This document shows, piece by piece, positions 40,947 through 64,000 of a stretch of DNA of 64,000 bases. A program made the position numbers and the translations under genes. Source of the DNA: Macrostomum lignano (Eukaryota); the NCBI GenBank assembly GCA_002269645.1, contig NIVC01002080.1, forward strand, positions 142,608 to 206,607, written 5' to 3'. The notes below the pieces were generated by a model, which saw only the letters and a program-made list of their open reading frames with translations, was not told the origin of the DNA and did not search any database. Within the stretch, counting starts at the first letter, position 1. Each line of letters starts with the position of its first letter.

Positions 40947-41249
40947 ATGCCCCGACTGCTTGCCGCCTTTCTACTGCTTTCGGCCTGTGCGATTCTGGCC
41001 GCCAACTGCCTGCCGACTTCTCCTCTGTCAGGCCGATTCCAACAGCGGCAGCCTCATCAGCTTAGCCGGAGTCTGGCTGCCGGTGATCAGGCCGACTGGC
41101 TGACGCTCGCCGACGCTCTTCGACTGCGCCAACTGGACAGGCTGGTGGGCGAGTTGCCAGGCGAAGACGCTGGATTTGATGAGGCCCAGCAGGAGAAGCG
41201 CGGCTTTCGAGGCAGCCTGCGATTTGGCTCGAATTTCGGCAAGAAGTGA
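40947..41249 (+). CDS. Neuropeptide precursor (100 aa); predicted amidated peptide GFRGSLRFGSNF-NH2
   Basis: Hydrophobic signal peptide MPRLLAAFLLLSACAILA, acidic spacer, then KR-GFRGSLRFGSNF-G-KK (dibasic flanks plus amidation Gly). Confidence 0.8.
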   Translation: MPRLLAAFLLLSACAILAANCLPTSPLSGRFQQRQPHQLSRSLAAGDQADWLTLADALRLRQLDRLVGELPGEDAGFDEAQQEKRGFRGSLRFGSNFGKK

Positions 41250-43505: not shown

Positions 43506-44504
43506 GAAGCAAGAAGCCAATCTTGTCAAGTAACATCCTTCAACAGACTAATTTGAAGTCCTAGCTAGAAAGGCCTATTTGAAATTCAAATTGAACCTTT
43601 TTCATTAAAGTGACTGTGCTGCATAGTTTCTATGGAGTGTCAACAACCACGAGGTCGTATAAACTACTCTAGCGTTAAAATCTAATCTATCCTCGTAGCT
43701 AATCTGATTCGAAAGCAGTTCGAAAAAAGAGCTGTGGTAATTGCAACACAATTTTATCTTTGAATTCCAACTAGGGCGTGGCACAATAGCTATTGTGTAA
43801 ACAAGCTTGAATGAATGATGTAGGTTTAAGGCGGGTGCATTGAAATTTCTGTTACAATCGATATTTTAATTCATTTTGTTCCCACACCCTGTCCCCTCTG
43901 CAATTTCAGGTAGATTGATGATTGCTTGGAGCTCAAAATTCTAACAAGTGGGCGTCTACAAAAACTAAAAAGGAAACTAAGAACTGATCTGAACTGCCCA
44001 GCAATGTTTAAAAATGGTTTTCTAGTGGCTGCCAACCCCATCCCCGTATCAATTACTACAACTTAAGCGGGTGTTTAATTAGCAGGATTTAAATAAACAA
44101 AATGAAACAGAAGAGACGCAATTAATTGTTCAGTTTGAAAAGTCCGGAAAATTTATTGCAATAAAGTCGGATGCCAATTCCGATGAAGAGTTTTTACATC
44201 TGCTTTTTTAATTTACCGTTAGAGTTGATCGCTGATCGCAAATGAATGGTTGAAAATTTGACGTACGTACTGTATGATACTGTATGATACTGTATGATAC
44301 TGTATGATACTGTATGATACAGCAGTATGTCATATTGAATGTTATTTTTTAGCCATGAGCTTGTTTTGTGTAATCAAAAACAAAACGGGAGAGTTTCACA
44401 AAGCACTAAATATTTTATGCAAAAGCTCGAATCTTCACAAGCTAAACGCTCAAAACTTCACCAAGGACCACTGCAATTGGCCATATACAGTGGTCCTTGA
44501 ACTT

Positions 44505-44890
44505 CCACGCTCAAAACTTCACACGCTCAAAACTTCACCCGCTCAAAACTTCACCCGCTCAAAACTTCACACGCTCAAAACTTCACCCGCTCAAAACTGC
44601 ACCCGCTCAAAACTTCACCCGCTCAAAACTGCACCCGCTCAAAACTTCACCCGCTCAAAACTTCACCCGCTCAAAACTGCACCCGCTCAAAACTTCACCC
44701 GCTCAAAACTTCACCCGCTCAAAACTTCACCTGCTCAAAACTTCACCCGCTCAAAACTTCACCCGCTCAAAACTTCACCCGCTCAAAACTTTACCCGCTC
44801 AAAACTTCACCCGCTCAAAACTTCACACGCTCGAAACTTCACCCGCTCGAAACTTCGTGCACAAGCTCAAAACTTCACAAGCTCGAAACT
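44505..44890. repeat. 16-bp minisatellite (GCTCAAAACTTCACCC)n; 10-bp (TGTATGATAC)n nearby at 44275-44320
   Basis: About 24 units; isolated monomers near 44447 and 45993. Confidence 0.93.
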
Positions 44891-46899
44891 TCATATTCTT
44901 CGAAAGTAGTACGAGAAAGTTTTTGGTTTCTATTTGCTTTTTAAGCTGCTCTTGCGAGTAATTTCTGTTGGGATTTATAAATCCGAAAAAATCTGCAGAT
45001 TCAGATTTGTCGTAGTTTTTGTAAAGCCAATGCGAAACAATATTGAATCTCGAGGCTAATCGCTTTCCCCTGTTCACGAGTTTCTTGGTTTTCGAACTTA
45101 CAAGCTTAAAACTCGCATTAATTACCCGAGTCTGCTCACCGGGTGCTCAGCCAATTGCCAATCGGCGGCAGATTATATGAATGTGACCGACAACATTCTT
45201 CGACGAATTTACATGTAACCGCGCGGACTACTCAGGTAGTTAGAAAGGGCTACTTAAATAAGGGGTCGGGAAACGGCCTAAGTCATGGTGATAAAAGCTT
45301 TAAACCTGAATGTACGACATTTACAGTTCGATTTTCTAACTCAGAGTCAAGACAATGCTGGTGAACGAGACACATGCACATTTACGATGCATATACACAC
45401 TCATCTTCCACTCTTCTTCTTTTTACAACTCTTCCACTCAAAGCATAAGCTATTTCAATAAAATATTGAATTAAGATAGAGATTACACAAATGTACTACC
45501 AGTTTAAAGTAAAGCTAAAGTGAGTTAATTTAATTTGCTTTATTGAACATGCCACGTCTACATGCATGTAGTACATGTACATGGATTACTTAAGCAGGAA
45601 GAATAAGAAGAAGAAGAAATCGATAGCTGGAATTTGAGACGAAGACAGCATTGGTCAACAGACTTCGTGGTTTGATCTATGTCATGAAGCACTGGAATAT
45701 TCCGCGAATACATGTGCCAACGGAATTCTAATCAACATTTTGAAGGCAAGATATCTGCGTTATGTCAAATTTGGATGACCAGATAGGAGCCACGTGCTGA
45801 TTCGTAACGTATGCGAGCAGAAAATTTACTTTACATTAAGCTTTTGTTTTGTAAAATTTATACAGTTGATATAACGAAGCGTTTGCAAATATCGCGTTTT
45901 GTTTGAATCGTGACATTTGAAAATAACAGTTTCCACGACGCCTGAATTCTCCTTACGTTGCGGAGAGGTATCGTAAAACAGAAGCGTGCTCACGCTCGAA
46001 ACTTCACGCTAGGCCGAAAAAATGCCGGTTTATTATTATAAACTGTAAACTTCGCATTGTCCAAAAGTAGTACTGGAAAGTTTTTAAAGTTGTAGAAGTG
46101 GTAATTTTTAATTAATTAGCAATTTGATGTTTACTTTTCTCCATCTTATTTATAGCTAGCATTTGTATAATTATAATCTCATTTTCATTTCATCCTGTTA
46201 TGTTCTGTGCCTGTATTCTGTTTTGATATTTTTATCATCAAACAAAACATATTGTCAAGTCTTTATTCTTTGTTATCCTATTTTTTATTTAATATTGTCA
46301 CTTTTCTTAAAAATGTTTTTTATATTTTAAAAAATTGAGATTGTAGCTAAAAATGTTGCGACTTGCATCTGTATTGTGTATCTGCCTAGAGAATTCGATC
46401 TCAGTCTAAATTTGGTTGATTGTCTTTTCTGCCTCTAGTCTTTCTTAAAATAATATAGCAAAAATCAATGTATTAACTAATTGTTCTTTTTAAATTAAAT
46501 TGTTTTATATTTTTATTTAATTATTATTGGTAACTAGTTTTTAGGTCCTAACTATAACTTATTAAAGCTATGCTGCAAAATTAAAAGCTATATTGCAAAT
46601 TTTATAATGGAAATATCATAGCTATATTATAGAGTAGGCTTAAATATAAACTTTTTATTGATAGGCTAGCATTAACTATTTTTAATATTATTAGTCTATT
46701 AACTCAGTCTTCACTGAGTTTTATCTCCTTTATTCATTGAATCAAAGTAAGGTATTACAAAAATCAAAATTGCAAATAAAAACTTTTTAAAGTTAAGACC
46801 TAATTCTAAGTCTATTTAGCAATTTATATCTTTATAAGAAATTTATCTAATAATTATTATACTCTATTTTGATTTAAACTTCAGAACATTTCCTTCCTG

Positions 46900-48659
46900 A
46901 TGCAATCAGCACTAATTGCAATACTGGGTGTAATGTTTCATCTGCTGGCCATGGCCACAGCTGAAGTTGTATTTTATCCTGAGCTGAAATCATCTGGCTG
47001 CGAATGGTCTGAATGGCAGTGCAAGGAGCATCAGACAGAATGCATCCTTTTTAGAGAGAAGAATTGCTCTTCCTTCATTCTGCGAGAGTATGATCAACTT
47101 CGCCAGGGAGTTAAAGGCATAAGTTGCAGATCCCAGTACTCATTCAACTGTCTGTCTGAACCCCGATTCTTGTCATACACCAGCTTCCATCCGATGTGGT
47201 GCTCTTGGCAGAGCTGGCAGTTTTGGAGCTACGCCTGCATCGATGCCATTTTAGAAAAACACTCCTGGCTCTCCAGCGCTCTGTCGGAGTATAAGCGTGA
47301 GCTTAATGAACTTCTCTTTTTAGTTCGTGAGTAACTAGTGACTGAGTTTGTGGCTCAGTTCATGAGTGAGATTATGAGTGAGCTTATGGGTAAGTTTATT
47401 AGTGAATGAGTTTGCGAGTGAGATCATGAGTGAGTTTATGGGTAAGTTTATTAGTGAATGAGTTTGCGAGTGAGATCATGAGTGAGTTTATGGGTAAGTT
47501 TATCAGTGAATGAGTTTGTGAATGAGTTCATGAGTGAGTTTATGGGTAAGTTTATCAGTGAATGAGTTTGCGAATGAGTTCATGAGTGAGTTTATGGGTA
47601 AGTTTATCAGTGAATGAGTTTGCGAATGAGTTCATGAGTGAGTTTATGGGTAAGTTTATCAGTGAATGAGTTTGCGAATGAGTTCATGAGTGAGTTTATG
47701 GGTAAGTTTATCAGTGAATGAGTTTGCGAATGAGTTCATGAGTGAGTTTATGGGTAATTTTATCAGTGAATGAGTTTGCGAATGAGTTCATGAGTGAGTT
47801 TATGGGTAAGTTTATCAGTGGATGAGTTTGCGAATGAGTTTATGAGTGAGTTTGTGGGTAAGTTTATCAGTGAATGAGTTTGCGAATGAGTTCATGAGTG
47901 AGTTTGTGGGTAAGTTTATCAGTGAATGAGTTTGCGAGTGAGTTCATGAGTGAGTTTGTGGGTAAGTTTATCAGTGAATGAGTTTGCGAGTGAGTTCATG
48001 AGTAAGCTTATGAGTGAGTTCATGGGTGAGTTCATGAATACGAGTGTGATGAGGGTTCATGAGCCCATACGTCCATGAGTTGAAGATAATCTGATAAGAG
48101 TTAATAAGTCATTGGTGAGCATGATCAGAATTTACAAGTGAACCAGGAAAACGATTATTTTGCAGACATCAACAACGGCTCCCTGTGGCTGAGACAGCGC
48201 AGCCGGCACTGCCGCTGTCCCAAAGGCAGATACGGCACCCAGTGCTCCGGCCCCAGTCAGCAGGTGGCCTTCACGCCGCGGACCGCCGATCTCGCAGTGA
48301 ACGGCGAGCTGCTGATCCCCGCTAGCCGTCAGTCGGCCTGGTGCCCCTGGTCCGCCTGGTCCGACGACTGCAGCTGCTTGTCGCAGATAGCGACTTGGGT
48401 GAAAAAACGTCGCAAACGAGTCTGTCAATTTGGCACGCCAACAGCGTCTGGCTGCAGCGGCTCCGCCATCGACACTCAACTGTGCTGGTGCGAACCCAGG
48501 CTCTCGAGTTCGTCGTCAACTACGCCGAAAAGAAATTCGAAAACGGATCTGGGACTAATATTTAGCAAGCCGATGTTAATAATGGTGTCCATTCCGCTGG
48601 GTGTGCTGCTCTGCCTGTGCTGCATCTGTCGGGCAACTCGACGGAGTGACCGGCTGTGA
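46900..48659 (+). CDS. Type I membrane protein with TSP1-like WSxW motifs and an EGF-like module; exons 46900-47326 and 48139-48659
   Basis: Signal peptide; CEWSEWQC, WCSWQSW, CRCPKGRYGTQC, WCPWSAWSDDCSC..RRKRVC..C.G; TM LIMVSIPLGVLLCLCCIC; short basic tail. C|GTGAGT donor and ACAAG acceptor, phase 1. Confidence 0.8.
47345..48035. repeat. 52-bp minisatellite rich in GTGAGT/GTAAGT in the TSP1-gene intron
   Basis: Period 52 (CATGAGTGAG at 47581 and 47633). Confidence 0.93.
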
Positions 48660-48714
48660 GTGCGCTCCTTTTTGCGCTGAGTAGAATGCATGAGGGGGCT
48701 TCTGGGACAAAATT

Positions 48715-49110
48715 TTTCACCTCCATAATCCACCTAAATCCATCCATATTATCCCTGACAGAATCAGAAAAAAAGGGGGGTCGCACCTGCTCACAAAACA
48801 TCGTCCATAATCCCATTAAATCCATCCATATTATCCCTGACAGAATCAGAAAAAAAGGGGGTCGCACTCGCTAACAAAACGTCCTCCATAATCCACCTAA
48901 ATCCATCCACATTATCCCTGACAGAATCAGAAAAAAAGGGTAGGGGTCGCACTTGATCTCAAAACGTCCTCCATAATCCCATTAAATCCATCCATATTAT
49001 CCCTGACAGAATCAGAGCATAACAGGTGTCCTACTTGTTCCGAAAACTTCAAACATAATCCCATTATAATCCACTGACATCCACCCATAGCATCTCTAAA
49101 ACAATCAGAA
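48715..49110. repeat. ~82-bp tandem repeat (4 copies plus a degenerate fifth) at the left flank of the Polinton
   Basis: ATCCCTGACAGAATCAGA at 48751, 48833, 48914, 48999. Confidence 0.88.
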
Positions 49111-49226
49111 AATAATCTGCATTCTTCTCCCCACATTCAATCCGCAACGTGCTACCAGATCCCTAAGACTTTAAATTATCAGCGCAGGGTGCTCATCCTC
49201 CGAAAAAATCTAAATTCTCAATAAAA

Positions 49227-49466
49227 ATGCTTCCAGTTGTCTCCCGAGGTTCTTATTATACTCAGCCTCATCCATTGTACAAATCCAAGTACCGATGCAA
49301 ACTTGAATGCAGCGAATACATGAGAAAATATTGGCCCGACGTTGATATCAATGTCCCTAATATTAATAAAGCACTTAAATCTCACTGGTTTGAAAAACAT
49401 GGAGTAACCTATGTAAAAGATTACGACAGCTACTATAACTTTGCAGAAATCATTAAGCAATTGTGA
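49227..49466 (+). CDS. Small hypothetical protein (79 aa) of the element
   Basis: AAAAATG start context like the other element genes; stop converges on the minor capsid gene stop. Confidence 0.5.
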   Translation: MLPVVSRGSYYTQPHPLYKSKYRCKLECSEYMRKYWPDVDINVPNINKALKSHWFEKHGVTYVKDYDSYYNFAEIIKQL

Positions 49467-49470
49467 TTTC

Positions 49471-50334
49471 TTACATTCTCTCAATGATCAACGTCAATAC
49501 AAACTCTTCCCCATTAAAATCAACGCCCATCCCATCTTCAGTCTCAAACTGTAGCACAATCTCGTGAATCTCCTTATTACTCAATACAACTCTTTTCACT
49601 GGATTTGGTTTCTCTACCACCATCTGTCCTCCAGCAACAGAGTTGGAGATGTTGTACAAAATATTCGTTCGCTTTCCCTTAAATACCCAATCAAGACTGA
49701 GATTGCTTCTGATTAGAATATTCAAACCCTTTACAATGTCTGCAATATTGGGTGCTAAGAACAAACCGCTTACACTTTCCCGGACCATTCTAACAGTCCC
49801 CGATGCTTGAGTGGCGGTCCGCGCCGCGGATTCTGCCTTATAAACTTTCTTCTCGAATCCTAGTTCCCTATACCAAGTGTCATCTTTAAACTCAACCTCC
49901 GCATTTTTGTGAACTTGCATGACCACTCTCATTACAGTGAGATCATAGGTTAGTTTGACAGGGAACAGTTTCTTCTCTGGCTTACTCGCATCAGGTGTCT
50001 CAAAATGGCCTCTCTTAGTAAAGACATTTTCTAGAAAGTTATTGTAGGTATCCACACTTTGCGTGCTCACATGGAATACCACAGGGTCTTCTGCTGCACC
50101 TTTCCATTTGTAATAAAACTTATTATTTGCTGCCATCACATTGGGAACGTTTGACCAACCAGTGAAGTCGTTAAGATAGACATGGTAATTAGCACCTGGA
50201 TCCAGGCGAATCGCCTGCTCTAATTTTTCAACAAATATCCCGTTTGAGTCATTAATTCGCCCAGTTATTGTAATAGGAATGCTCTCTTTAGAGTGAGAAA
50301 CTATATTATTTAGTCTTTCAGCAATCGCTTCCAT
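49471..50334 (-). CDS. Minor capsid protein (penton, single jelly-roll), intact
   Basis: 287 aa; C-terminal pattern IRSNL...KGKRTNILY.....G.MVVEKP...I.EI.LQFETEDG..VDFNGE.F.L.L typical of Polinton pentons; adjacent to MCP. Confidence 0.82.
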   Translation of the reverse strand: MEAIAERLNNIVSHSKESIPITITGRINDSNGIFVEKLEQAIRLDPGANYHVYLNDFTGWSNVPNVMAANNKFYYKWKGAAEDPVVFHVSTQSVDTYNNFLENVFTKRGHFETPDASKPEKKLFPVKLTYDLTVMRVVMQVHKNAEVEFKDDTWYRELGFEKKVYKAESAARTATQASGTVRMVRESVSGLFLAPNIADIVKGLNILIRSNLSLDWVFKGKRTNILYNISNSVAGGQMVVEKPNPVKRVVLSNKEIHEIVLQFETEDGMGVDFNGEEFVLTLIIERM

Positions 50335-50357
50335 TTTTTTTCACAAAAAAAAAATAT

Positions 50358-51644
50358 TTAAACTTTACTGGATGAATTGTTGATCATGTTAAGCTTCACC
50401 TTCCTCTCAAATGCATAGATAATGTACAGGTCCACGGGTGTTGCGGTAGTCCTTTCAATGTTAGTCACGATATTCACAGGGCTGTTATCAGTAGGCATTT
50501 GTCTGGCAGACACATCAGCGCCAAACATCGGATATAGAGTTCCATATTGAAGAGCAGTGATAGCAATTCCATTGTTCTCTTTCACAGCCAAGTCGACCAA
50601 CTCGCTATAAAATTTGCTAATCTTGTTCTGACTGAAATCTCCATTTTGTGGCAGTGCAGGGTAAAGATTATCACTGATTTCATGCTGAATGGACCGCACG
50701 TCTCCATGCATGTAGCGTATGATGCTATTTGGGTTTCTCATGTTAATAATGATATACCTTGGATTGCTGCATGATCCCTCTTTGATGCGGATGTTTGTTC
50801 TAGTTTCGTTTCGCTCATCTCGACACATGTAGGCCGTGTATGCAACATCAATGTCCTTCTCTATTGCCTTAAGATAGTCTGCTTTTAGTGCAGTCTTTGG
50901 CTCAATGACTTCCAAATACAGCTCGATTCCGGTTAGCTTCACAGCCATCCCAGTGTGGTCCGCCCCAGTCCACAACACTCTACTGCGATCATCTCTAGTC
51001 AGTCTAAATGTGTAGCTAAAGTTGCTAGTCAGTCGATTAAATGTATTACAGAATCCACTCATGAATCTCAGTGGTACAAATACATCAACAGACCGATACT
51101 GCGGGTTCTTAGCAGCATCATCAGCACCTTGCAATGCATAGTTGTATCTCTTCTTCCTATTTTTATAGCCACTGTCATTGATATCTCCTTCTTTTTCATC
51201 TGCAATAAAACCCGCACCACTTCCCAACTGAATAAAATCAGGATTCTCGATCAAACAATGAGCGTCATAGACAATTCCAAAGTTGGCGATTCGCTCCAAC
51301 TCTGTGCTCCCATTCGATACACTAAACTCCTTGAACATGTACGCCCAAAAGTTACTGATCAGAGCCACATCCGCATCATGCTTGTCAACGTTAGCACGAG
51401 CCGCATCCGCACCACCTTTTGTCTTGAATTGAAATGTCATATGGAAGCCGCTCTTAAGACTGTGCACACTAACCAGAGACGAACATCCATTGTATGTAAA
51501 TGTCAGTGTTTGACCTGGACCCAAATTAGTTTCATTCTGGTTCTCGTGACTCGGAACTCTAACTTGTGTCGCTTTGATTGTGCTATCATCACTCAAAATA
51601 AGCTTGTTAATTTTGTAGAAAACTGGTGTCAGTCGGTCGTTCAT
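50358..51644 (-). CDS. Major capsid protein (double jelly-roll), intact
   Basis: 428 aa, beta-strand rich; N.WAYMFKE.S...G.TELERI, VFVPLRFMSGF, KLTGIELYL motifs; size and position next to the penton as in Mavericks. Confidence 0.82.
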   Translation of the reverse strand: MNDRLTPVFYKINKLILSDDSTIKATQVRVPSHENQNETNLGPGQTLTFTYNGCSSLVSVHSLKSGFHMTFQFKTKGGADAARANVDKHDADVALISNFWAYMFKEFSVSNGSTELERIANFGIVYDAHCLIENPDFIQLGSGAGFIADEKEGDINDSGYKNRKKRYNYALQGADDAAKNPQYRSVDVFVPLRFMSGFCNTFNRLTSNFSYTFRLTRDDRSRVLWTGADHTGMAVKLTGIELYLEVIEPKTALKADYLKAIEKDIDVAYTAYMCRDERNETRTNIRIKEGSCSNPRYIIINMRNPNSIIRYMHGDVRSIQHEISDNLYPALPQNGDFSQNKISKFYSELVDLAVKENNGIAITALQYGTLYPMFGADVSARQMPTDNSPVNIVTNIERTTATPVDLYIIYAFERKVKLNMINNSSSKV

Positions 51645-51674
51645 TTTTTAACTAAAAATAAAATAAAATAAGAA

Positions 51675-52874
51675 ATGAAGCGGAAAAGTTCATATCATAT
51701 CTCTGAACTAGAAAAGCTGGCGCAAGCAGAGAAACGAGTTACCGGACTAATCAACAAAGAACAACAATCTTACAATGAATTCGTCCAAGCAGCCACCGAA
51801 TTTCACAAACCCGGATACACAGAAGCGAAGAAAAACATCGACACTGTGAAGGAAACAATTGATGATATTCAAGAGAGCCAGTTGCAAAACACATTGGGTA
51901 AAATCCCATCTTCACCGGAACAACCACAGGCTCAGCAACCAGGACAACCAGTGCAGATGAATGTGACGGATAACTTTTTTTGGCCCCGTAATGGTTGATG
52001 GAAAATATATTTTTGGAATTAGCGTCTGGCGAAAAGAAATTACCAAGGAACCGGTGGATTACAACATTGAAGTGACAAAGGAAAATATTTCAATCAATAA
52101 AGGTGCAGAAACTAAAGAATCCCCTACACTAAAACTTTACTTGATTACATGACTAAAAATCTAGAGAAAACGTCTGAAAAGAAGCTAAAAAATTACAAAG
52201 ATCTTGTTACCTTCGCTTTAGAGAGGGACATAGACATTCTCAAGAACAACGGTGTTTTGAAAGTTTTACATGAAAACAGGATTGACTTGAACAGGTTTAG
52301 AAAATACAAATACTTTAAACAATGGTTTGGTTTGCCAGATCAAGAAGAGGTCATAAGACAACAACCACAACAACAACAGCCACAACAGCAGCAACCAAAA
52401 CAACAACTACAACAACCACAACAGCAGCAACCACAAACACAACCACAACCACAACAACCTCCACCGCCACAGCAACAAATCACACCCGAACAAGTACTAG
52501 AAGCGCTTGAAAAAGCAGGGCCAAATGAGATTTCCCAGTACAGAAACCAGCGCCCAGATGAATGGCGACAATTAGAGCGGCTCTCCCCAGAACGAATGAA
52601 GCGAATCAATGACAGAGTATTCACACCTCAACAAAGACAAGCGCCACATGACAGTTCCTCCTCTGACCAATCATTCGAATCACCTCCAAGCTCTTCCGGA
52701 AAAGGCATGCCTGAATTCTACAAGCGGTTAGCTGTTCTTCTAGGAGCGGCAAAGACCGGAATGAAAGACGAGAATAGAAAAGAATTTGTCAACATCCTGG
52801 ACAAAATGCTTGAGAGAAAATATATCGATAAAAGAGCAAGAGAACTTTTGCTTTCACGGTTTAACAAAAAATAA
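51675..52874 (+). CDS. Probable single ~400-aa Maverick accessory/core protein split by indels (ORFs 51675-51998 and 52149-52874), with a Q/P-rich linker
   Basis: Frames can be joined across T7 (~51975), T4 (~52088) and C runs; C-terminal SGKG..F.KRLAVLLGAAKTG..EFVNILDKM helix resembles a motif conserved in Polintons (PZ-type assignment tentative). Confidence 0.6.
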
Positions 52875-52890
52875 ATTTCTATTTAAAAAG

Positions 52891-53271
52891 ATGCCAATTA
52901 TTTTCGAAAAAGACATTGACAAATACTACGACAAAGAGGAACTTAATCTCATTAAACGCGGATCTGGACTTTTCCCTGCAGGCCACTATCCAAGAAAAGA
53001 ACGTTCTGGGAACGGTCTTGCCGATTTGATCGCTCAAGGGGCCAAGATTTTTAAGGTCATTGGAGAGAACAAAGAGAACATCAAGAACGTTGCTGAAGCG
53101 GCCGGTAGTGTAGCCACAGCAGCCAAAAAGATTAAAGATACGGTTCATGAAACCCGGAAATCAATACCAGATATTCAACCCCTTGCACCGAGTGCAGATA
53201 GTGTCGATCCAGCCATCTACGCAAAGATGAGAGCTGAATATAAGAAAGGAGGCGGTTTTAAATTTGACTAA
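52891..53271 (+). CDS. Small virion core-like protein with GxG motifs and an amphipathic helix (126 aa)
   Basis: ATG at 52891 in AAAAAGATG; KRGSGL, RSGNGLADLIAQGAKIFKVIG, terminal KKGGGFKF. Confidence 0.65.
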   Translation: MPIIFEKDIDKYYDKEELNLIKRGSGLFPAGHYPRKERSGNGLADLIAQGAKIFKVIGENKENIKNVAEAAGSVATAAKKIKDTVHETRKSIPDIQPLAPSADSVDPAIYAKMRAEYKKGGGFKFD

Positions 53272-53467
53272 TTTGGTGCACCCTGACGGTAAAAGAGGTG
53301 TGAGGGTGTAGGACTAGTCGGATGTAGGACTAGTAGAAAAAAAAAGACACACAACCCGAAAAAAAGACACACATCCCGCAAAGAGACACACACATACACA
53401 TCCCGAAAAAAGACACACGCGTCTTAAATACACAATTTTAAAAAGAAAAAGTTTTTTTACATAAAAA

Positions 53468-54266
53468 ATGGACTTCACAAACGACTTTCATCCCCACTGG
53501 ACACGCAATCAGATAAAATTTGCTCACAACGAGATAATTCCAGGGCACTTCCGATGCATTGTTGTTGGCTCATCTGGGTCAGGGAAAACCTTCAGAGTTT
53601 TTAACATGCTCCTCAGACCTGGATTCCTCGATTATGACACACTACATATCTATTCACCCACTCTGTATCAAGATGAGTATAAAATGCTAGTAGCGGGCCT
53701 ACAGAACAAACTCAACAAGGAAATATTATTCAATGTTTTAGACATCAAAAAGACCTCAACAGCAACCCGGAAGTTGTAGCCACTGAATACGCAAAGCACA
53801 TCCCAGACAATGAAAAATGGCAAAATTTAAAGTTTTCACTTATGGAGATCCACAGATAGATCCTAAAACTAAACTCTTACCTCAACCTGATGAACTAGAA
53901 AAGGGGAGAAAGCACCTGATTGTCTTTGATGACTGCATGACCGGTCCCCAGAAACAGATAGAAAATTATTTCACCCGGGGTAGACACAATAACTGCAATG
54001 TTATTTACATTGCCCAAAACTGGTTTGAACTGCCAAATAAAACAATTAGAGGTAACTGTAATTTGATTCTCCTTTTCCCAACCATACCACAGGATCGACT
54101 GAAACGATTTTATAATGAAGTCATTGCCCCAGCTCACATTACATATCCAGCTAAGAACTCTAACAGAACAATATCACAGGAGGAATTTGTTAACATATGC
54201 TATGAAAAGTGGAACCAACCTTATCAGTTTGTCATGATTAATAAGGAGAAAAGAATTTTAATTTAA
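53468..54266 (+). CDS. A32/FtsK-like genome packaging ATPase (two -1 indels in A5 runs near 53750 and 53815)
   Basis: Walker A GSSGSGKT, Walker B LIVFDD, then RGRH and IYIAQNWF motifs. Confidence 0.93.
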
Positions 54267-54283
54267 TTTTTCATTTAAAAAAA

Positions 54284-55057
54284 ATGTCTATTAATTTTGC
54301 AGGTGAGTCAACTACAAGCAACAGCACTCTCACAACTTCCTTCCTTGACAAGCGCTACATTAACATTGATGAAGAGATCCCAGAGATCAAACTGAATAAA
54401 AACAGACTGAAAGCCCTAGAGCGCTCCATGCACCAGTTGCAAATCAACATGGAAGATCTCAGGCTTAAAGTAGCTAGACAGAAGTTTGACAGTGATAAGC
54501 TTTATGTGCCGTTGTTAAACGCAACTAATGAACTAAGGTCAGAAATAACTTCGGCGGTCTCGCTAATCAACGGCTTGAGATCATCAGTTAATCTTCTGGG
54601 AAATTTCACTGATAGACGGATGCGTATTCTTGAAGAAAGAGTTTTCACAAACACAGTTAAAGTGAGGAATTTAGAAGAGTTCATGAACCAGTCAACAGCG
54701 TTGCATGATAGAATTAAAGAAAACGTCGCAACCAACACATGTAAAGTGAGGAATTTAGAGGAGTTCATGACTCAGTCAACAGCGTTGCATGATCAAATCA
54801 AAGTAAGAATTACTGCAAATAAAGTCTTTGTAGATTTAGTTTTTACCGAATGGCAGAAATCGGTGAGAAGAATCGGTCGTCTTGAACGCTTGCATAATCT
54901 CAAAAACATTGACGCTGAAGAGGCACCACAGACCACAAGGGAAACAAGTGATCCAACCGACTTGTTTGAGATCATGCGTAGAATGGAGCTCACAGATAAT
55001 GAAAAGGCAGATTCAGAGATTTGTTGCCGTCACTGCAGACGAAGCAATCAACCGTAA
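54284..55057 (+). CDS. Coiled-coil protein with a 29-aa internal repeat (fibre/spike-like candidate)
   Basis: N-terminal LDKRYINID; heptad pattern; VKVRNLEEFMNQSTALHD repeated as CKVRNLEEFMTQSTALHD. Confidence 0.7.
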   Translation: MSINFAGESTTSNSTLTTSFLDKRYINIDEEIPEIKLNKNRLKALERSMHQLQINMEDLRLKVARQKFDSDKLYVPLLNATNELRSEITSAVSLINGLRSSVNLLGNFTDRRMRILEERVFTNTVKVRNLEEFMNQSTALHDRIKENVATNTCKVRNLEEFMTQSTALHDQIKVRITANKVFVDLVFTEWQKSVRRIGRLERLHNLKNIDAEEAPQTTRETSDPTDLFEIMRRMELTDNEKADSEICCRHCRRSNQP

Positions 55058-55115
55058 AACAAATCTAACCACCACCAACTAGTTGCCGATTTTTTTTTTA
55101 AAAATTCCCTAAAAA

Positions 55116-55760
55116 ATGGATGCTCAAAATTCTTTTTATGATCCGAACGCTTCCACAACACCTAGTGCACCTAGTGCACCCCAATATGAGCAACAAAAAC
55201 TCTACCCCGTCATTACTTGTAACTCTCAACAGTTTCGACTAGTGGAGATTCAAAAAATGCGAGATGATCTTGAAAAAAAATATTTTCCACAACACAAAGA
55301 AAATTAAGCGCTATGACAGCCACTGTAAATTTTTCGACTACAGCAATATGATTCTAGGATCTGTGTCTGTTCTATCTGGATCTGCTGCAGCTGTCTCAGT
55401 GTTGCCAGCCATCACAGCCCCAATCGCAATCCACTTGGTTCAGTAGGTGCTGCATGTGGACTTATTTCAGCAATTACTGGAGCATTAGCGCGAAACAGGC
55501 GAAAAAAACTAAAGCAGCTACAGGAGAAGCAAGTAAAAGAGAAAGGGGTGCACACATCAATCATAGGGTACATTTCAAGGGCAATCGAGGATAAGTTCAT
55601 TTCAGAGGATGAGTTCAAAACCATTCAGGATCTTTATGAACAATCAATTCGAATGAACTTGAACATGGTCGGTACTGATGACATGAGTCAGCTGAGAAAT
55701 GAACTCGAGAAAGTTCTTCAACATTATGTGGAAAGAAGGACAACGAGAAATGCACAATGA
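55116..55760 (+). CDS. Reconstructed ~214-aa membrane protein: PSAP/LYPx late-domain-like N-terminus, hydrophobic hairpin, ISEDEF C-terminal helices (two compensating indels)
   Basis: Removing one A from the A8 run (~55278) and adding one C at ~55433 joins ORFs 55116, 55264 and 55548 into one frame. Confidence 0.72.
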
Positions 55761-55764
55761 ACCC

Positions 55765-56166
55765 CTATGAAACACAGCCAAGAATAATTTCCTTGTAGGT
55801 CTTTCGTGTTTTGGTCATTGCATACAAAACAGTCATGCACAGCTCACCGCAAATATCACTGCTAAGACCTTGAAGAATAAAGTCTGAGTGGTAAATTTTT
55901 TTATTATTTTTCCCCTTCATATAATTTCTTAGCTCTTCTGGTACTGCCGTCCCATAGCTATCGAAGTAATAACACTTGTGCTTGCGATCGGGATCAATCA
56001 CCCAGCAAACCCAATGAGATCCTGGCTTATCGGTGGTGTCAAAGTTCATGATGCCGCATTCCTTTCTTAGAGGAAAATCAGGCAGAGTGTCCCTCATAAA
56101 TATTCCTCTAAAGTTTGGGATTTCCAGTTCATTAGCCAAATCTTCAAGAAAGTTATTTGTTGTCAT
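55765..56166 (-). CDS. Adenain-like (C5 family) capsid maturation cysteine protease, intact, 133 aa
   Basis: GSHW (His), YYFDSYG (Asp), LQ...ICGELC (Gln/Cys); ATG at 56166 in AAAAATG context. Confidence 0.93.
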   Translation of the reverse strand: MTTNNFLEDLANELEIPNFRGIFMRDTLPDFPLRKECGIMNFDTTDKPGSHWVCWVIDPDRKHKCYYFDSYGTAVPEELRNYMKGKNNKKIYHSDFILQGLSSDICGELCMTVLYAMTKTRKTYKEIILGCVS

Positions 56167-56238
56167 TTTTATGAGGTTTATTAAACTTTCTCTCAAACCT
56201 AAACCTAAACTCCACCTCCTAAACCTAAACTCCACCTC

Positions 56239-59200
56239 CTAAACCCAACTTCCACCTCCTAAACCTAACCTCCAATGCCCGAACGGTAGACTGTTAATAT
56301 TGTCATCAAAAATGAATCTCTTGTTATCTGCACCTGACAGCCCAATCTTCTTTTGCTGAATTGTGTGAATAATATGGTTTTTAGATTGTAGCTTTGAGAA
56401 CTCATGTGATGTCTTTTTGTTGCAATTCAAGGCGTCTCTGTATTCAGCTTCATTAATTTCCTTCCTAACCACACGTTTCGGAATTCCCTTTGATTTTTTG
56501 ATTGGGTCTGACGACTCACATTTTACAAAATAGGACTTTGCTCTCAACCCTAATGAATTCAGTGATTATGTCACCAGCAATCTCGTCCTTCATTTTCCCA
56601 ATCACTTTCTTGTTAGTGGCGTCAAACACTTGATCGCCATTCTGTGTCCTGCAAGATTCATCATACTCAGACAAGTCAAACAAATCTTTTTGCTGCAGCA
56701 TGTCCTGATAAATGTCTTCTGTTTGAATGTCCATAATAAAACTGTCTGTGTCAGTGTACAAGAGTTTCATTTTATCCTTGTACTGCTGCTTCATGCATAG
56801 AAGAACTGGTACATCAGACGTTTTGATTCGTCGAGTACAGTGACACCTGTATAGATCGGCTTGCGCAGCGTCACCTTGTTTTGTAAAATATGATACACCT
56901 AAGTAGCTATTAAAGATATGGAGTTCTTTGAATGTTGGCTTTGACATATTTGCCTGAATAACAGCAGGCTCTGATGAGGTAACAAGTTTCAGGTTTGTTC
57001 TTTTCCGCTCATTCTCAAGAGTCTTGCCATAGACAGAGTTGTTGGCCAACTTAAAGAGGTTCTTGTCAAATTCGTTGGTTGCTTTGGTCCTAAACTGGGT
57101 GTTCTTATCAATGTAGGGCTTCATCCACGCTTCCTCTGTAAATGTAAGAGCCCTGTGAACTTTGGTGACCCTGCAACCAAGTGAGATAAAATATGAAGCA
57201 GTTTGTAATGGATTTTGTAACGTGTCTTGTTGTTTAGATTCTGTGTTAGTTTCTCTGTATGTTCTTTTTCTGTTCCTGACAGGTGCCAAGTTCCATTATT
57301 ATCATTGGGAGTTTCGATTATTTTCGGGCACTTGATGTTCTCTGGGAAGGGTGGAAAGTCAGAGAAATAGTCGTGAAGCTCTGGTGGAATGTAAACATCA
57401 ACCTCATAAATGGCAGCCAATGAAAAGTCCCACTTTAGTTCTGATGAGGGTAGCCATCGAAAATCTCTAACTGGAAGATCTTGACTCATCGCCCACCCGT
57501 AGAGATTATTAGCGTCCAAGTAAGTAATGTAGTTTGAGGGCTGCTCCTTATTGTAAGATTCAATGTAGGGATTGTTTGCTTTTGCATACCTGTTAACACA
57601 AATTGAGATCCCCCCTCGCTTTGACGATTCAACAAAATTGTACATGTCAATGTCTGTAAGAAGTTCAATGTACCAATCTGGATCTTGATCCCATTTCATT
57701 TTAAGCAAAGATTCCCAGCTAGTGGCAGGCAGAGACACATAATGTGCTGGATCGAGGCCATATGCTGTGTACCAGGTGTATCTGAAGGTTTCAAACACAT
57801 CGGCCAGCAGAAACACATCTGTGAAGAGGTAAAGCAGGTGATACTGGAAAAAGTTTTGACAATTAAAGTAATTATAGACATGCTTCGCGTGCTCATAGTC
57901 TTTGTCAGAGATTCCAGAGTCTGTTAGCTTTGAAAAGAACTTTTCTTGTGGTGGTAAACCATCTTCAAATACGTGATACCCAGTAATATTCTCATAGGGG
58001 TAGAAGCCTTTCTTTCCTTAAAGTTTAAATGATTCATCAGTGTTGTTAATTTTACTTGCAAACATCTTTGTATATGTACATTTTTCATCTCTTAGATTCT
58101 TGCTTAGTTCGTCTAGACTGGCAGCTAGAAATTGATATGAATCCTTCAGTCTTATTTTACCTTCACCTTTACCCGAATTATCCTGTTTAATATCAACACA
58201 CTTAAACTTCTCCTTGTTCTCTGCGATGCAATCAAGGTGTATGTCTGGAATCATGCCGATTTTTTCAACTATTAAATGCATGTCATAGTTCTTTGCGTTG
58301 TGACAAAATATCGTTAGATCATGAATGTTCGATTTTAGCTTTAGATTACAGGTGTTATGCGCTGCACCTCTAAATTTCCGAGTAAAGTGGCAGTGGTCCC
58401 TAACGGTGGGGTTTTTAAAATCAGTGCAAGTTAACTGTTTCCTGCAGATGTGGCAATGAGTTGCTGATAGGAAATTGCTTTCATCCTCCTCAGTCATCAT
58501 TATTGGAACAGGTTGAAGGGTGCTAATCACTTTTTGCAACTCTAACATTCTGGCAATAAACTGCTCCACACACTGCTCTCCAAAGAAATAATTATACTCA
58601 ACAAGTCCTTTTGTATTAATAAAGGCATATGCTACTGAATTGGGGACATGTTTTTGAGTTTGAGTTTGTTTTTGAGTTGGAGTTTGTTTTTGAGTTTCTG
58701 GCACGATTGAGCATTCGAAATCAGCATATACAACAAATGGGAGCTTCTCCATCTTATGATAGTTCTTAAACCGGAGATACTTCTCTTCAGCTGAAGGAAG
58801 AGAGCAGTTTGTTGGGTGATCCTCGCATGATAATTCATGCTCTGCTAGTTTTTCAAAGCGCCCAGGCCCACTGTAATGCTTAAGGCACAAGCGGCAGATG
58901 GCAACAGCCTCGTGATGATTATTCAACTGCTTGTGAATGAGTCTTGAAAGATTTTAATCCAAACATAGTGAGCCTCCTCTAGTAAATTACCAATCACTAG
59001 AAGATCCACTTCAGTCCGCCTTTTCCCCTCAGGATCTAAAACGTCTTTGCTACATCTGACCGGTTGAACTTTCTCAGTTTTCTCACTCCACTCAAAGACT
59101 GTGATTCTAATTTTGTTATTAAACACTTCTTCTAGCTTTGGGATCTGAGAGATCGCCAAGCCTCCTTTGTCAAACCTGATTCCCTTCTTTTCGCATTCGA

Positions 59201-60118
59201 TGAGATAGTAGTTGAAATAATTTTGATAATTTGAGGTTCTTTCGGGTGGTGAGGTACACTAAAAAGTGCAGAAAGAACTGCCCATAGAGCACAGCAATTG
59301 TCTTTATTTTTAACATTTATGCAAGCTTTTTTGCCGGCTAGCTTATGCGGGAGCTCTATATAAGAGGAGGCTTTAAGTGGGTCATATTTCATGACCATGA
59401 CAGTTGCTCTTTGAATCCCTCCACGACCCATCCGGAACCTCTGGATGTAAACGCTTCAATTTTCTTATGACATCTTGAAGGAAAGGATCCAGTGTGTCTG
59501 TTGGGTGAATGGCTTTGCCTTTGTTGTCATGTAATACTCGAGATGCTCAGTGGGTTTCGCAGGCATATAAAACGCAATCTTGAATGATATCTGTAGTTTA
59601 AAGGTCTTGTGTGTTTTGAGCGTGTGATCAACAACTGATTAGATGCTGTCTTTATAGTCGTAGATGTTTGCGGTGGTATCCTTAATTGGGATTGTGTACT
59701 CTATGTAATGTTCTGTAAACTTCCTCTGTGCAAAATTAATCTCTTCAATGGCAAGCTCCGACTCTTTTAAATGGATTAATTGCTCTAATTTCTCTTGTTC
59801 TTGCTTATTTTGTGGGTACTTTGCTTTTTCACCAGTGAGAGTTTCGTATTTGTTAACTAAGTTGCGACTCCTCTCTTGGTGTTCCTTTGCAGGATTTTTT
59901 ATAGGCGCATACTGGTTGAATTCTAATTGGTTGATGATTTCCAACTGTTTTTCATAGCTTCCCAGGTGACTAGGGTCGGTGTTGAACTTTTGTTTGCATG
60001 CTTCTCTTAGTGAATTACTTTTGTCTTGAAATGAGACGCCTTTTAAGGTTGTAGGGTAGGGTAAATGAGACGAAAAATATTTGTTGACTAAATCTCTTGC
60101 TGGATTGGCTTTTGGCAT
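56239..60118 (-). CDS. polB: Protein-primed family B DNA polymerase (~1290 aa), fragmented by indels and one in-frame stop at 58018-58020
   Basis: ExoI VYADFE, ExoII HNAKNYD, ExoIII TDVFLLADVFE; Pol motifs YLDANNLYGWAM, KLANNSVYGK, YTDTDS; C-terminal DNKRF..PFGH. Confidence 0.95.
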
Positions 60119-60400
60119 TTTTTTCTCTAAAATATAAAATAATTTTGAGGGTTACCACCCTGATAGAAAAGTTGAACTGTTTCTACATCCTATAAGTAGT
60201 GTTAGGTTTATGAAGCTGGATAAAGTGGGGTTTAAAACCTCATCACATACGCATTATTGTAAACCCAGCATTGTGCAGTGTCATGATGCTTTGACAATGT
60301 CAGACTTGCTTATAGAATTTTCATTCTCACAATCATCACGATCGGGGCAGTGCCTTAACATAGTCTCTTGCAATCTCTTCTCTCTAATTGCTTTACCTTG

Positions 60401-60718
60401 TTATACCTTTGTCTCTTGCAATCTTTTGCAATTCAGCTGGTGGGCTCTATCATTCCCAGCTTTAACAGCAGTTGCTACACCTCCAGCTACACCACCTGCG
60501 GCACTTACAGCGCCTGCAATGATCGGAATAAGAGCTGCTAATGGTAGGATTCCTCCTGACTTTTCATCTGTGATGCTGTGTCTTTGCTCATTACACTGAA
60601 CTATTTGCTGCACGGGATCGATTTTTACTTTGGCACCTTTAATTGATATAAGACCTGGTTTCTTTGATTCAATGATTTTATTGAGTTTATTGATGGTTCT
60701 GGTTTCAATCTTTGTCAT
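60401..60718 (-). CDS. Adenovirus pX-like core protein precursor (C-terminus probably frameshifted)
   Basis: SGG-ILPLAALIPIIAGAVSAAGG resembles adenoviral pX GG-FLPALIPIIAAAIGA, preceded by a basic region. Confidence 0.75.
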   Translation of the reverse strand: MTKIETRTINKLNKIIESKKPGLISIKGAKVKIDPVQQIVQCNEQRHSITDEKSGGILPLAALIPIIAGAVSAAGGVAGGVATAVKAGNDRAHQLNCKRLQETKV

Positions 60719-60967
60719 TTTTTATTTTAATATTTTAATTAATTTCCGTGTCAGCTGGTATCACTAGGAGTTCAGCTCTAGTGAATGACCGCGTGGGGGA
60801 TTTAGGGTTAAAGGCCTGAGATAAAAAGTAATAGTCTCCAGAGTCGGAGGTAAAATGTCTGTCTATTTTATGTACATCAAGGCTGAAGTATGGATCTGTA
60901 GCTCTTCTTTTGGTGTCTTTCTCTAGCTCTCCAGGTAGATATAAAAAGCGTAGAAACTCAGAGTTTG

Positions 60968-61765
60968 TCAGTATGTATGGTGATTCAACTCCTGGAAGCT
61001 TAGGGTAGTTCGAGGTGTGTTTTGTGTTGTGGTGTTGTGTGGGGTTGTCGTGTTGTTGTCTGTTCTATGAGATGACTTAAGTTCGACAGTGTCTTGTTTA
61101 ATTGCATGGGATGGTTTCAATCCAGTCATGCGCGTGACTTCATTGTTCAGTTGCTCTATAACAGTGGGGAGCCGGTCTGTCCACTTGGTATAGTACTGAC
61201 CACTTTTTAGTTTCAGCTCTTCAGCTGTCTGCTTAGTGAATAGCCTCTTGGCTAGAGTTAGATTGAATCTTTCCACAAAAGCCTGGTCTCTGTGCAAGTT
61301 TGTTCTGCCATAGCGAATCTCTGTGTTTTTCTTTTCCATAAGGGATTTCACTGCACCCATGAATTCTTTACCGGGTCGGTCATAAAGATTTGGGGTATGT
61401 GAGCGGAGAGTTTTTATAAATATCTTGAGGGCGGCTGCAACTGCTCTTGACTTCTTCGTCTTGAGTGGGCGAGCTTCCTTATATCTGGAAGCAATGTCTA
61501 TAATTGTAAGAGCATACTTGTAGCCTGAGTCATTGGGGAGAAACAGAAGATCTGCTTGGTGCGCCTCATTAGGTTTATAAATACTGAAATGGGGCCTTTC
61601 AAATTTTACTGGTGGGAAATAGACTTGGTAGACTGCTGCTTAGAGAGCCACTTTTCTACTTAGCTTTTGGTTCCTTACTAGTTCTGTGAGTTTGGTGACT
61701 GCATTTTTTCCTACAAAGAATCCTTTGTCGCTGTAGTAGAGTTTTTTAAGTTTCTGATCTGTCAT
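60968..61765 (-). CDS. int: Retroviral-type (rve, DDE) integrase, frameshifted
   Basis: Reconstructed HQADLLFL..YKYALTIIDIASRY (D), TDPGKEF (D), QAFVERFNLTL (E); N-terminal KKLYYSDKG. Confidence 0.92.
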
Positions 61766-61795
61766 TTATTTAAAAAGAAAATTTTAAATAAAATA

Positions 61796-62188
61796 ATGCA
61801 GCGCTCTGGTGGTAATAGATTCACATGGACTGATAGAAAAGCTTCCTCATCCAAACAAAGGCTGGACACTTCCGGTAAAATATTGTGGGCCTTTGAATCC
61901 ACTTGAAATACAGTTAGATAAAAACAATAATCCAAATCCTGGGCATGAGCCTGTGAACGAGCTAGACTCTGTCTGCATGTGGCACGATGTTAAATATAGA
62001 GATTTTCCTGAGGAGAAGAATCGCTGGGACAAAGAAATGCTTAGAGACTAGACAATATAGGGGCTTCAAGCGGGTGGAAGGAATCGATCGCTCGGAAGCT
62101 AGTTAAAGCTGTTATTTTTGGTAAGACAAAACTGGGGTTGGGGGTCGGCGGCTGTTTGAAAGAGCTTTGTGTTGCACGCGCCAAGTAA
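61796..62188 (+). CDS. Parvovirus VP1u-type phospholipase A2, frameshifted at both ends
   Basis: KYCGPLNPL (Ca loop), EPVNELD..C.WHDVKY (HD dyad); the frame continues after one missing C as LDNIG...KTKLGLG. Confidence 0.88.
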
Positions 62189-62655
62189 AAATTAGGAATA
62201 CTGCTGAAAGAGCTGGGGGTTGAGAGAGCAGAATGATTCAAGCAAGAAAATTCAAGAGAAACTTTTTAAGAAAATAACAGCAAAAGAAAAATAAATGGAT
62301 GACATGATATACTTTTGAGCAGCAGTTAGTTTCCCAAATTTGGTACTCACACAGGCTGCCACTCGAAGGCCGCTGCTACAGCCCGCGCATCTTTAAAGAA
62401 GAAAAAAGTAATTTGATATTAGCAATCTCCTTACTTTCTTTTTCCTTTTAAAGATGGAAAAAAATTAACTTGTCTGAAACAAGAAAGAGAAGATTTAGAG
62501 AAGAAGAGAAGAAGAAGAGAAGAAGAGAGAGAAGAGAGGAGGAGAAGAAGAAGAAGAAGAAGATTTAGAGAAGATGAGAATTATCTTCTTATTATTAAGA
62601 AGATAAAGAAAAGAAAAGTTATATTTATTTACCATTTTTACTATTTTTATTTACT

Positions 62656-63230
62656 ATTCTTTTTTTATTTGAATAACACCCATGCTCCAATAGGTTTTAT
62701 ATTTATTTGAACACATTAACATGTCTTCAATATCATTTTTTAAGGTGTAAAGTTCCTCAAATGTTATATTTAGCTTAAAAAACGAGGATAATCATGTAAT
62801 GTTTTACTAAGAGACAACATTTTTCTAATAGTGCTTTTAGAATATGTTATCTCATGTCGTTGCAAAAACTCCAACCTGATCATCACAACTTTTACATTTA
62901 ACAGTTTCTTCAGGATGTTCTATTCTATGTTTCGCTGCGTTGTGGTTAAGCCATACACCACAGATGTATGTGGCAATGAGCATACGATTATTACATCTTT
63001 TTAAACTTGTGACTGCCGTCTGTAGTTGTTCTTCTACAGATAACGGCATATTCGTATCAACAATAGAATAGGGGTGATTAAATTCATCGACCCCTTCAAA
63101 TTCAAATACTTTTGCGCAAAGATATTGATGAAGCGTCTCACCAGTTGGCCGTAGTTTTTGCTTCTTTACTTTTACTTTCTTTCTGCTGGTTGATCTTGAT
63201 CCTCATCTACATCCATGCGCTCTTCATTTA
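62656..63230 (-). pseudogene. Probable frameshifted accessory ORF (includes 62852-63049)
   Basis: Frames join into MDVDEDQ..KLRPTGETLHQYLC..MPLSVEEQL..CKSC..ITYSKSTIRKCC..YKTYW. Confidence 0.4.
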
Positions 63231-63829
63231 ATTTTTTTGATCGATCTTCTTAAATTGCCACAACTAGGTACTAAGGGGCAATCTAATGTAACTTTTAAAT
63301 GAATTAAATCATCTTCAGATAAGAGTAGTTCGTTTTATTGTTATCTTTTGCTAACTGATTTAGCTGTAAAATTTTAGAGAAGAGAGATAGATCTGGTGTG
63401 ACAGACAAGTCAGACATTTTTAACCGAGTAACTCTTCAAAAGTAGTTGTATAAATAAGCTTTCTTCCTTACCGACAGACTTTGGGGGGGAGGAGGTGTCC
63501 GCCTGATAGCGGCGAGACGACTTGGCTTTGGGATAAGGGGAGAGAATTGAGTAGACTGAGAAGAGCTGTGGACGAGGGACAATGGAGGATCGGGGGTATG
63601 GTTTTGGTTGGCCATACGTATGCCATACGTAGCATACCCATACGTGCTGCGGGATTGACTGTAGGTAGAGAAGTGGAAAGAGAGAGAATTGCTATGTAGA
63701 ATAAATGCTCACGGTGAGGAGAAGCTTGTGTATAGGAAGAGAGTTCTCTCTGTATACGGGGCCTGCGTACTCTGAGTTAGTAGAGGGCATAAGCTTTTGC
63801 ATGGGGGAAGAGATATTTGCTCTGTACAT

Positions 63830-63945
63830 GTTCGGCGGCGGAACATTTGTTGGGCTGAGGAACAAATGTTCGGCTGAGGAACATTTGTTCGGCTGAGGAA
63901 CATTTGTTCGGCGACAGAACATTTGTTCGGCTGAGGAACATTTTA
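63830..63945. repeat. 19-bp tandem repeat (GAGGAACATTTGTTCGGCT)n
   Basis: About 6 units with a palindromic GAAC..GTTC core. Confidence 0.9.
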
Positions 63946-64000
63946 GCTGGCTCTGTAGCTGGTGCCCTAGAGGGTAGTTTTACATTTTCCCTTAGATAAA

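Follow-up and report, generated by a model that had tools for sequence, protein, structure and literature searches.

Late domains and release from the cell

Release from the host cell by way of late domains is a familiar strategy, for which the PSAP of hepatitis E ORF3 provides one comparison. The described protein that most resembles the one considered here is NS3 of bluetongue virus (PF01616), a protein of ~220 amino acids (aa) that carries N-terminal late domains, a coiled-coil helix, two predicted membrane segments, and basic motifs, that keeps both of its ends in the cytosol, and that is encoded by a nonenveloped virus (PMC7409164; this source and those cited below are drawn on in excerpt). 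Late domains as defined in the literature (PMC8402826, PMC4880917, and PMC10159163) include the motif pair of retroviral Gag (PSAP plus LYPAL in MLV and PTAP plus YPXnL in HIV-1, in which PTAP duplication is also known), and the YPXnL of HAV VP2 is a precedent for quasi-envelopment (PMC8402826). The pair is also found in Toxoplasma GRA14, a membrane protein that has both P[S/T]AP and YPX(n)L and to which TSG101 and ALIX are recruited; GRA14, however, is a parasite protein that serves the uptake of host material from the cytosol and not egress, and thus the motif pair need not mean egress (PMC10159163).

A second body of work concerns genes labeled SLATT in adintoviruses, Polinton-like viruses, and giant viruses, whose products share with the protein described here a helix, a two-segment apolar hairpin, and a helical C terminus. 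Such genes are labeled on the Hydra and Stylophora adintovirus maps of Starrett et al., who also describe the genes PLA2X, GasderminX, and Cupiennin as membrane active (PMC8502044), and the family reported below may already bear the name SLATT, Cupiennin, GasderminX, or that of an Adintoc gene. SLATT genes of Polinton-like viruses have been proposed as entry pores (PMC12220804), and SLATT genes have also been proposed to serve abortive infection or lysis (10.64898/2026.10.13.758929); the excerpts of these two papers make no mention of late domains in their SLATT hypotheses, and those of 10.64898/2026.06.19.733378 and 10.1101/2025.02.07.637071 hold labels only. An earlier hint of membrane-wrapped Mavericks came from the nematode Maverick fusogen MFUS-1 (10.1101/2022.07.12.499685), but this is an entry glycoprotein limited to nematodes, and no fusogen is recognized in the Macrostomum lignano element; envelopment of Mavericks outside nematodes was left open by Jeong et al. 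(10.1101/2023.08.22.554363).

The window analyzed here (the whole 64,000-nucleotide stretch of M. lignano DNA, with positions counted from its first base) contains a gene that an earlier note had read as a Polinton membrane protein with stacked late domains and a possible NS3-like system of nonlytic exit, a route that the note believed to be undescribed for Polintons. That belief is borne out among the literature matches listed, which covered few subscription journals and included no paper linking Polintons, Mavericks, or SLATT to ESCRT or late domains. The strategy is known from NS3 and from quasi-enveloped RNA viruses, and for Polintons no description was found.

The Maverick element and its gene context

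A Maverick/Polinton spans ~48.7 to 63 kb of the window, with several of its genes in pieces. Both of the genes by which such elements are recognized are present, namely, a protein-primed DNA polymerase B (pPolB; 56239 to 59455, reverse strand, in several frames; PF03175, E 6e-6) and a retroviral-type integrase (60968 to 61639, reverse; PF00665, E 2e-6, under the cutoff). The capsid module comprises a double-jelly-roll major capsid protein (50358 to 51647, reverse; PF21738, E 4e-5), an A32-like packaging ATPase (53465 to 54266, forward, in two frames; PF04665, E 3e-4), and an adenain-like maturation protease, i.e., the cysteine protease (55765 to 56238, reverse; PF00770, E 6e-4), all three matched under the cutoff, together with a putative minor capsid (penton) protein assigned from position and size, with no Pfam match (49471 to 50340, reverse). 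The same capsid-module gene set is found on independent contigs. Over the cutoff are an adenovirus pX-like core protein (60401 to 60721, reverse; PF05829) and a parvovirus-type phospholipase A2 (PLA2), which is separate from pX here (61797 to 62051, forward; PF08398). The likely left end (48680 to 49100, no strand assigned) begins with AG, is followed just inside by imperfect tandem repeats of ~110 bp (48720 to 49080), and is marked by contigs of one run that diverge at 48678/48680. No right inverted repeat matching this end was found in 44000 to 64000, and the contig ends with the window.

Some further observations concern the surroundings of the element. A host membrane-protein gene with Cys/Trp-rich repeats (46884 to 48659, forward) precedes the Maverick, which starts ~20 bases past its stop codon, and the intron of this gene (47297 to 48165) is spliced in contigs of three runs. 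A host open reading frame (ORF) at 40845 to 41249 (forward) looks like a neuropeptide precursor, with a signal peptide followed by a dibasic site and a short peptide whose last residues are RF-G. Within the element, LYPAL occurs at residue 327 of the major capsid protein; such a motif was seen in 1 of 9 capsid ORFs examined and is probably there by chance. Three runs guessed to be RNA yield contigs over the late-domain gene and the whole element, for which DNA carryover of a high-copy element is a possible source.

The late-domain gene (55116 to 55760, forward) lies directly downstream of a 270-aa ORF of no family (54245 to 55057, forward) and is convergent with the protease gene. Its relatives keep similar company: Maverick core genes are present on 12 of the 13 metagenome contigs of ≥5 kb that bear the family (16 of 66 loci overall, most contigs being short), and on most such contigs the late-domain gene sits among capsid, ATPase, and protease genes, as in the order pPolB, integrase, ATPase, capsid genes, pX, protease, unknown ORF, and late-domain gene at one locus (L069). 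This placement bears on the idea that the protein serves ESCRT as a sorting adaptor and is unconnected with capsids, in which case it would direct host surface or immune proteins to multivesicular bodies or export itself in exosomes as an effector. GRA14 gives such an adaptor a membrane-protein precedent for the motif pair (PMC10159163), and the capsid partner that we suggest below is proposed by analogy only. Against it, the gene stays in the virion-assembly cluster of independent elements. Moreover, PPxY, which is typical of ubiquitin-sorting adaptors, is not enriched in the N-terminal tails of the family (6 of 124 tails versus 2.8 after shuffling, within the shuffle range), and we regard an adaptor of this kind as unlikely.

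The late-domain gene and its sister copies

The features that the earlier note had listed are all present in the window copy, on the forward strand. Two overlapping PSAP motifs of the TSG101 type (PSAPSAP, 55161 to 55181) arise from a 9-bp tandem duplication (55161 to 55178), a duplication paralleled by that of the HIV-1 PTAP, and are followed by LYPVI (55200 to 55214), an ALIX-type [LIVM]YPx[LIVM] motif, which across the family is conserved better than any other part of the tail. The window copy has I, not L, at Y+3, and YPxI is accepted by ALIX too. Helical segments and an apolar stretch of ~51 residues lacking D, E, K, and R (55339 to 55490) lead to the basic cluster RNRRKK (55491 to 55508), in which K131 is found in 91% of 150 aligned members, and from this cluster a helical tail extends to the stop at 55760. 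Within the tail, the family alignment contains a near-invariant D-x-x-I-S-x-x-E-F helix-loop-helix (55590 to 55616). No other C-terminal residues are conserved as strongly as its D159, I162, S163, E166, and F167 (D, 92%; E, 97%), and its sequence pattern looks like the latter half of an EF-hand loop or, more simply, like a helix-capping box. An NSLY-like tetrapeptide upstream of the late domains is common to the close clade, and the window copy (55125 to 55142) has F for L there.

The claim of one reconstructed ORF has to be divided. The window copy is not one ORF, since its frame shifts near 55,270 to 55,300 and again near 55,430 to 55,440, the latter inside the apolar stretch; in 17 of 30 fetched sister copies, however, the gene is one natural open frame of 211 to 230 aa. 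Because all 29 sister copies depart from the window copy where the first break lies and 26 of 29 do so at the second, and because 17 of 30 read open, both breaks are private to the window copy, where they represent either decay or an assembly error.

The sister copies come from searches of the species' own genome, in which 40 of 312 candidates were scored at the DNA level (all 94 to 100% identical) and 150 of 309 at the protein level (150 of 150 match). Two P[ST]AP motifs are retained in 28 of the 30 fetched copies and one in the other 2. When distinct single-base variants were counted over codons 1 to 200 of the open copies only, pN/pS among the 17 was 0.20 (24 synonymous and 16 nonsynonymous variants; p 7e-7), and therefore selection acted on the gene while the family spread. 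The late-domain gene is thus under purifying selection among its copies.

Conservation of the tail motifs

The reading of the tail as a late-domain region turns on whether the motifs are conserved relative to the sequence around them, a check that the earlier note proposed, and they prove to be so far above chance. Eight close homologues (42 to 54% identity) have tails that otherwise do not align, and yet [LIM]YPx[LIV] is found in all 8 and P[ST]AP in 7. A profile search returned 550 clusters at 50% identity; from the best 150 of these, 149 of them new, 25 were left out for a tail of <13 aa or a truncated match, leaving 124 representatives. In their N-terminal tails, [LIVM]YPx[LIVM] occurs in 108 (shuffled mean, 0.9; maximum, 5) and P[ST]AP in 54 (shuffled mean, 0.6; maximum, 4) against 1,000 composition-preserving shuffles, and the rest of the proteins contain 0 and 2, respectively. 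A chance origin of the motifs was considered and is ruled out by these counts.

Because the original profile included the tail, the count was repeated on the 74 representatives whose HMM match begins after the motif columns, of which 62 have the YP-type motif and 28 have P[ST]AP. In a set retrieved by the core peptide only (66 loci, 42 with a readable start, forming 16 clusters at 80%), the YP-type motif is found in 12 clusters and P[ST]AP in 5; in a redundant, profile-selected set, the counts are 110 of 114 and 71 of 114. Either motif falls in the first 45 aa of 9 of 10 family ORFs versus 1 of 154 other ORFs of the same elements, many of these 154 being spurious.

The two motifs are not equivalent. 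The ALIX-type motif, not PSAP, is the core motif of the family: 63 of 124 tails have the YP-type motif only, 70 have no P[ST]AP, and 7 have neither. Two long-branch members (P0071 and P0084) are without both motifs and could mark a motif-less, possibly nonanimal branch. The pair is also mobile in position, since 29 tails are YP first and 24 are PSAP first, and on a core-only tree the two orders require 19 and 18 changes, of which at least 6 and 8 are forced by well-supported branches (the tree is a quick one, with 49 of 121 inner branches unresolved).

Could the tyrosine motif instead be an ordinary clathrin-adaptor signal, with PSAP an incidental piece of proline-rich sequence and ESCRT uninvolved? 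YxxPhi is the consensus of the tyrosine-based clathrin-adaptor sorting signal, YPx[LIV] formally fits it, and P, S, and A abound in the tails. The constraint on the motifs goes beyond this consensus, however: P at Y+1 is nearly fixed and a hydrophobic residue (L, I, V, or M in 109 of 116) precedes Y, neither of which YxxPhi requires, and Y+3 among the 116 YP motifs is L in 82, I in 15, and V in 14. Likewise, PxAP has S or T at x in 54 of 58 cases, and shuffles give at most 4 PSAP tails versus the 54 observed. We consider a plain sorting signal highly improbable.

The family has no name in the sequence sources searched, and its atlas clusters, which have members in Mollusca, Nucleocytoviricota, and Preplasmiviricota, are annotated as "hypothetical"; one member is a Hydractinia protein. 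Scans of IMG/VR with two family alignments and one metagenome scan found no relative, phage records gave chance matches only, and PHROGs gave nothing consistent. A member whose 3-kb contig was assigned to a bacterial metagenome bin (L129) is probably misbinned animal-virus DNA.

Candidate ESCRT partners in the host

The host genome encodes both candidate partners. The exon for the TSG101 UEV domain is present in three copies (E 1e-44 to human TSG101). Exons of the ALIX V domain are present too, among them the KFY segment, whose Phe we take to form the YPxL pocket of ALIX. In the host UEV (L052:1468-1872), human Y63 is replaced by H and F142 by V; these residues presumably line the PTAP groove, and the two substitutions might alter PTAP affinity. 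A complex prediction for tail residues 1 to 40 with the host UEV returned a score of 0.00, which counts in neither direction. Another host gene (L061) encodes an ALIX-type V domain within a 1,643-aa open frame; it is possibly HD-PTP and an alternative partner for YPx[LIV].

Because the motifs are conserved, because their order changes often within the tail, and because the host encodes both partners, the conserved and position-mobile pair very probably represents ALIX and TSG101 late domains, with ESCRT binding as the expected consequence. Those refuting conditions of the earlier note that computation can address did not hold, since homologues keep the motifs and sister copies read as a single ORF. 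The ranavirus precedent, in which only 3 proteins bound in >20 late-domain tests (PMC4880917), indicates that a motif by itself proves little, although the motifs there were not shown to be conserved as they are in the Maverick family.

Predicted structure and membrane topology

Structure and hydropathy were studied on a natural open sister copy (L006), taken unaltered as the query. In the AlphaFold2 (AF2) model (150 sequences; pLDDT, 85.6), residues 1 to 36 are unstructured, helices 37 to 93 and 104 to 159 form a hairpin, and two short C-terminal helices follow. Residues 75 to 125 are free of D, E, K, and R (family median, 50), with a net charge of +3 before and +7 after this apolar run. The hydrophobic hairpin of the earlier note therefore stands as an apolar stretch with a predicted helix-turn-helix form, but its hydrophobicity is moderate (Kyte-Doolittle 19-mer, ~1.7 to 1.8 in L006) and two full membrane spans are a prediction only. 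A first window with hydropathy of ≥1.6 is present in 156 of 157 proteins and a second in only 33 of 157, and thus two full spans and a re-entrant hairpin are equally possible. Under either topology the model places the tail in the cytosol.

As for known folds, the best matches to predicted structures are uncharacterized invertebrate iridovirus proteins (S6DF61, A0A5B8RH66, and A0A068QKD3; E 1e-6 to 9e-5; TM, 0.52 to 0.67), for which the rmsd is high (6 to 29 Å), making this a likeness of predicted fold alone; giant-virus proteins come next, several of them labeled SLATT. Searches of solved structures yielded matches of a generic helical kind only, with none from Foldseek at E 0.001 or better. 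A BAR protein was considered and rejected, as the best VIA-align result (arfaptin/BAR; Z, 12.3; rmsd, 3.5; 165 aligned) is under the ~13 that helical bundles would be expected to give. In PADLOC, 61 of 150 members match the LeoBC model over its C-terminal part (best E 6e-9); we take LeoBC to be a dynamin-like protein of bacteria whose tip inserts into membranes, and we read the match as a common trunk-and-tip layout. No family model among the matches shown was over its cutoff (RTX, 26 of 150 members; SLATT_5, 1; orbivirus NS3, 1).

These results bear directly on a second explanation, in which the protein forms a pore in the manner of a viroporin or holin, with a SLATT- or RTX-like hairpin, ESCRT binding only sorts the pore or ties up ESCRT membrane repair, and exit is lytic or entry is pore aided. 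The apolar hairpin is long and rich in G, A, and S. The RTX N-terminal domain is matched weakly by 26 of 150 members (best E 3e-5), the best hit of a PDB sequence search is the AopB translocator (E 0.001), and SLATT-labeled viral proteins are among the fold matches at E 1e-3 to 0.1. For Polinton SLATT genes, entry pores, endosomal escape, and lytic egress have been put forward in the literature (PMC12220804; 10.64898/2026.10.13.758929), and NS3 itself has viroporin-like activity (PMC7409164), so that the pore and egress readings can coexist. The SLATT layout (two membrane helices and a helical cytoplasmic region) fits, with a second segment that is weakly hydrophobic. However, the RTX and SLATT family matches all lie under the cutoff (the best SLATT case, P0026, reaches PF18160 with E 3e-6 and 27 bits versus a cutoff of 29.5), and hhalign against five SLATT_5 proteins, a thin template, gave a probability of 0.2%. 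The element also already has PLA2 for entry, and recruitment of ALIX and TSG101 together is the usual signature of budding. A pore as the main function thus seems to us rather unlikely, if worth keeping in view.

A model for nonlytic exit

With the tail motifs very probably late domains, what would the protein do for the element? A membrane protein with cytosolic late domains, encoded in a virion-assembly cluster, most resembles bluetongue NS3, and for this reason we commit to the reading that ESCRT recruitment wraps Maverick capsids in host membrane and releases them without lysis, to which, by this analogy, we would assign a probability of about 0.58. In this model, the antiparallel hairpin (37 to 93/104 to 159) would insert its apolar tip into the membrane, and the basic residues flanking this tip would hold the N and C termini alike in the cytosol, the site of ESCRT. 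The tail would bind the ALIX V domain through the core motif and, in ~40% of members, also the TSG101 UEV. We posit that the cytosolic helical part would bridge to capsids at endosomal or plasma membranes, in analogy to bluetongue NS3, and that ESCRT-III would then pinch off membrane-cloaked particles. Because no recognized fusogen is encoded, we speculate that particles taken up would lose their cloak by shedding or degradation and would rely on PLA2 for entry.

The resemblance to NS3 proposed in the earlier note is one of layout, and it does not extend to homology, since PF01616 is matched by only 1 of 150 members (E 0.002; 18 bits versus a cutoff of 27). The motifs and the loop differ as well: NS3 pairs PSAP with PPxY, whereas the Maverick family pairs YPxL/I with P[ST]AP, and NS3 has a 21-aa glycosylated luminal loop, whereas the L006 sister copy has an apolar turn of ~10 residues without Asn. 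Gag and HAV, in turn, carry their motifs on a structural protein, whereas here they are on a separate membrane protein of a double-stranded DNA element. Given the GRA14 precedent and a capsid partner proposed by analogy only, the step from ESCRT binding to quasi-envelopment is one that we infer.

Where the wrapping would occur is a further question. Polintons are thought to assemble in the nucleus, and the egress reading would need a further exit step. This step is the starting point of another explanation, in which the protein acts at the inner nuclear membrane, recruiting ALIX and ESCRT-III so that nuclear-assembled capsids bud into the perinuclear space in the manner of herpesviruses. The core motif is of the ALIX type, basic clusters flank the hairpin, and ALIX recruitment to the inner nuclear membrane is described for HSV-1 UL34 and EBV BFRF1 (PMC10159163). 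On the other hand, P[ST]AP, as an ESCRT-I motif, suggests a site at endosomal or plasma membranes, and in the excerpted review table the herpesvirus nuclear-egress proteins have no listed YPxL (PMC10159163). A nuclear site of action is, in our view, improbable, and we retain release of capsids at endosomal or plasma membranes as the working model.

Implications for Mavericks

Mavericks, endogenous DNA viruses with a wide distribution, have been proposed to act as vectors of horizontal gene transfer. If the model is correct, it would provide the first exit mechanism for Polintons and a proposed function for a large unannotated family, one that is at odds with the pore and lysis guesses made for similar genes. 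The late-domain pair supplies named host partners and a 36-residue test peptide, the tail, which the window copy retains intact. The model also predicts that Maverick DNA would be found in the vesicle fraction and not only in naked capsids, which might explain the scarcity of particles found. In its broadest form, for which we see the odds as even, the proposal would be that many aquatic-invertebrate Mavericks have a dedicated ESCRT-recruiting egress protein and spread membrane cloaked without a fusogen, and that the fold of this protein is common to invertebrate iridovirus and giant-virus proteins with two membrane segments that would have acquired late domains in animal hosts.
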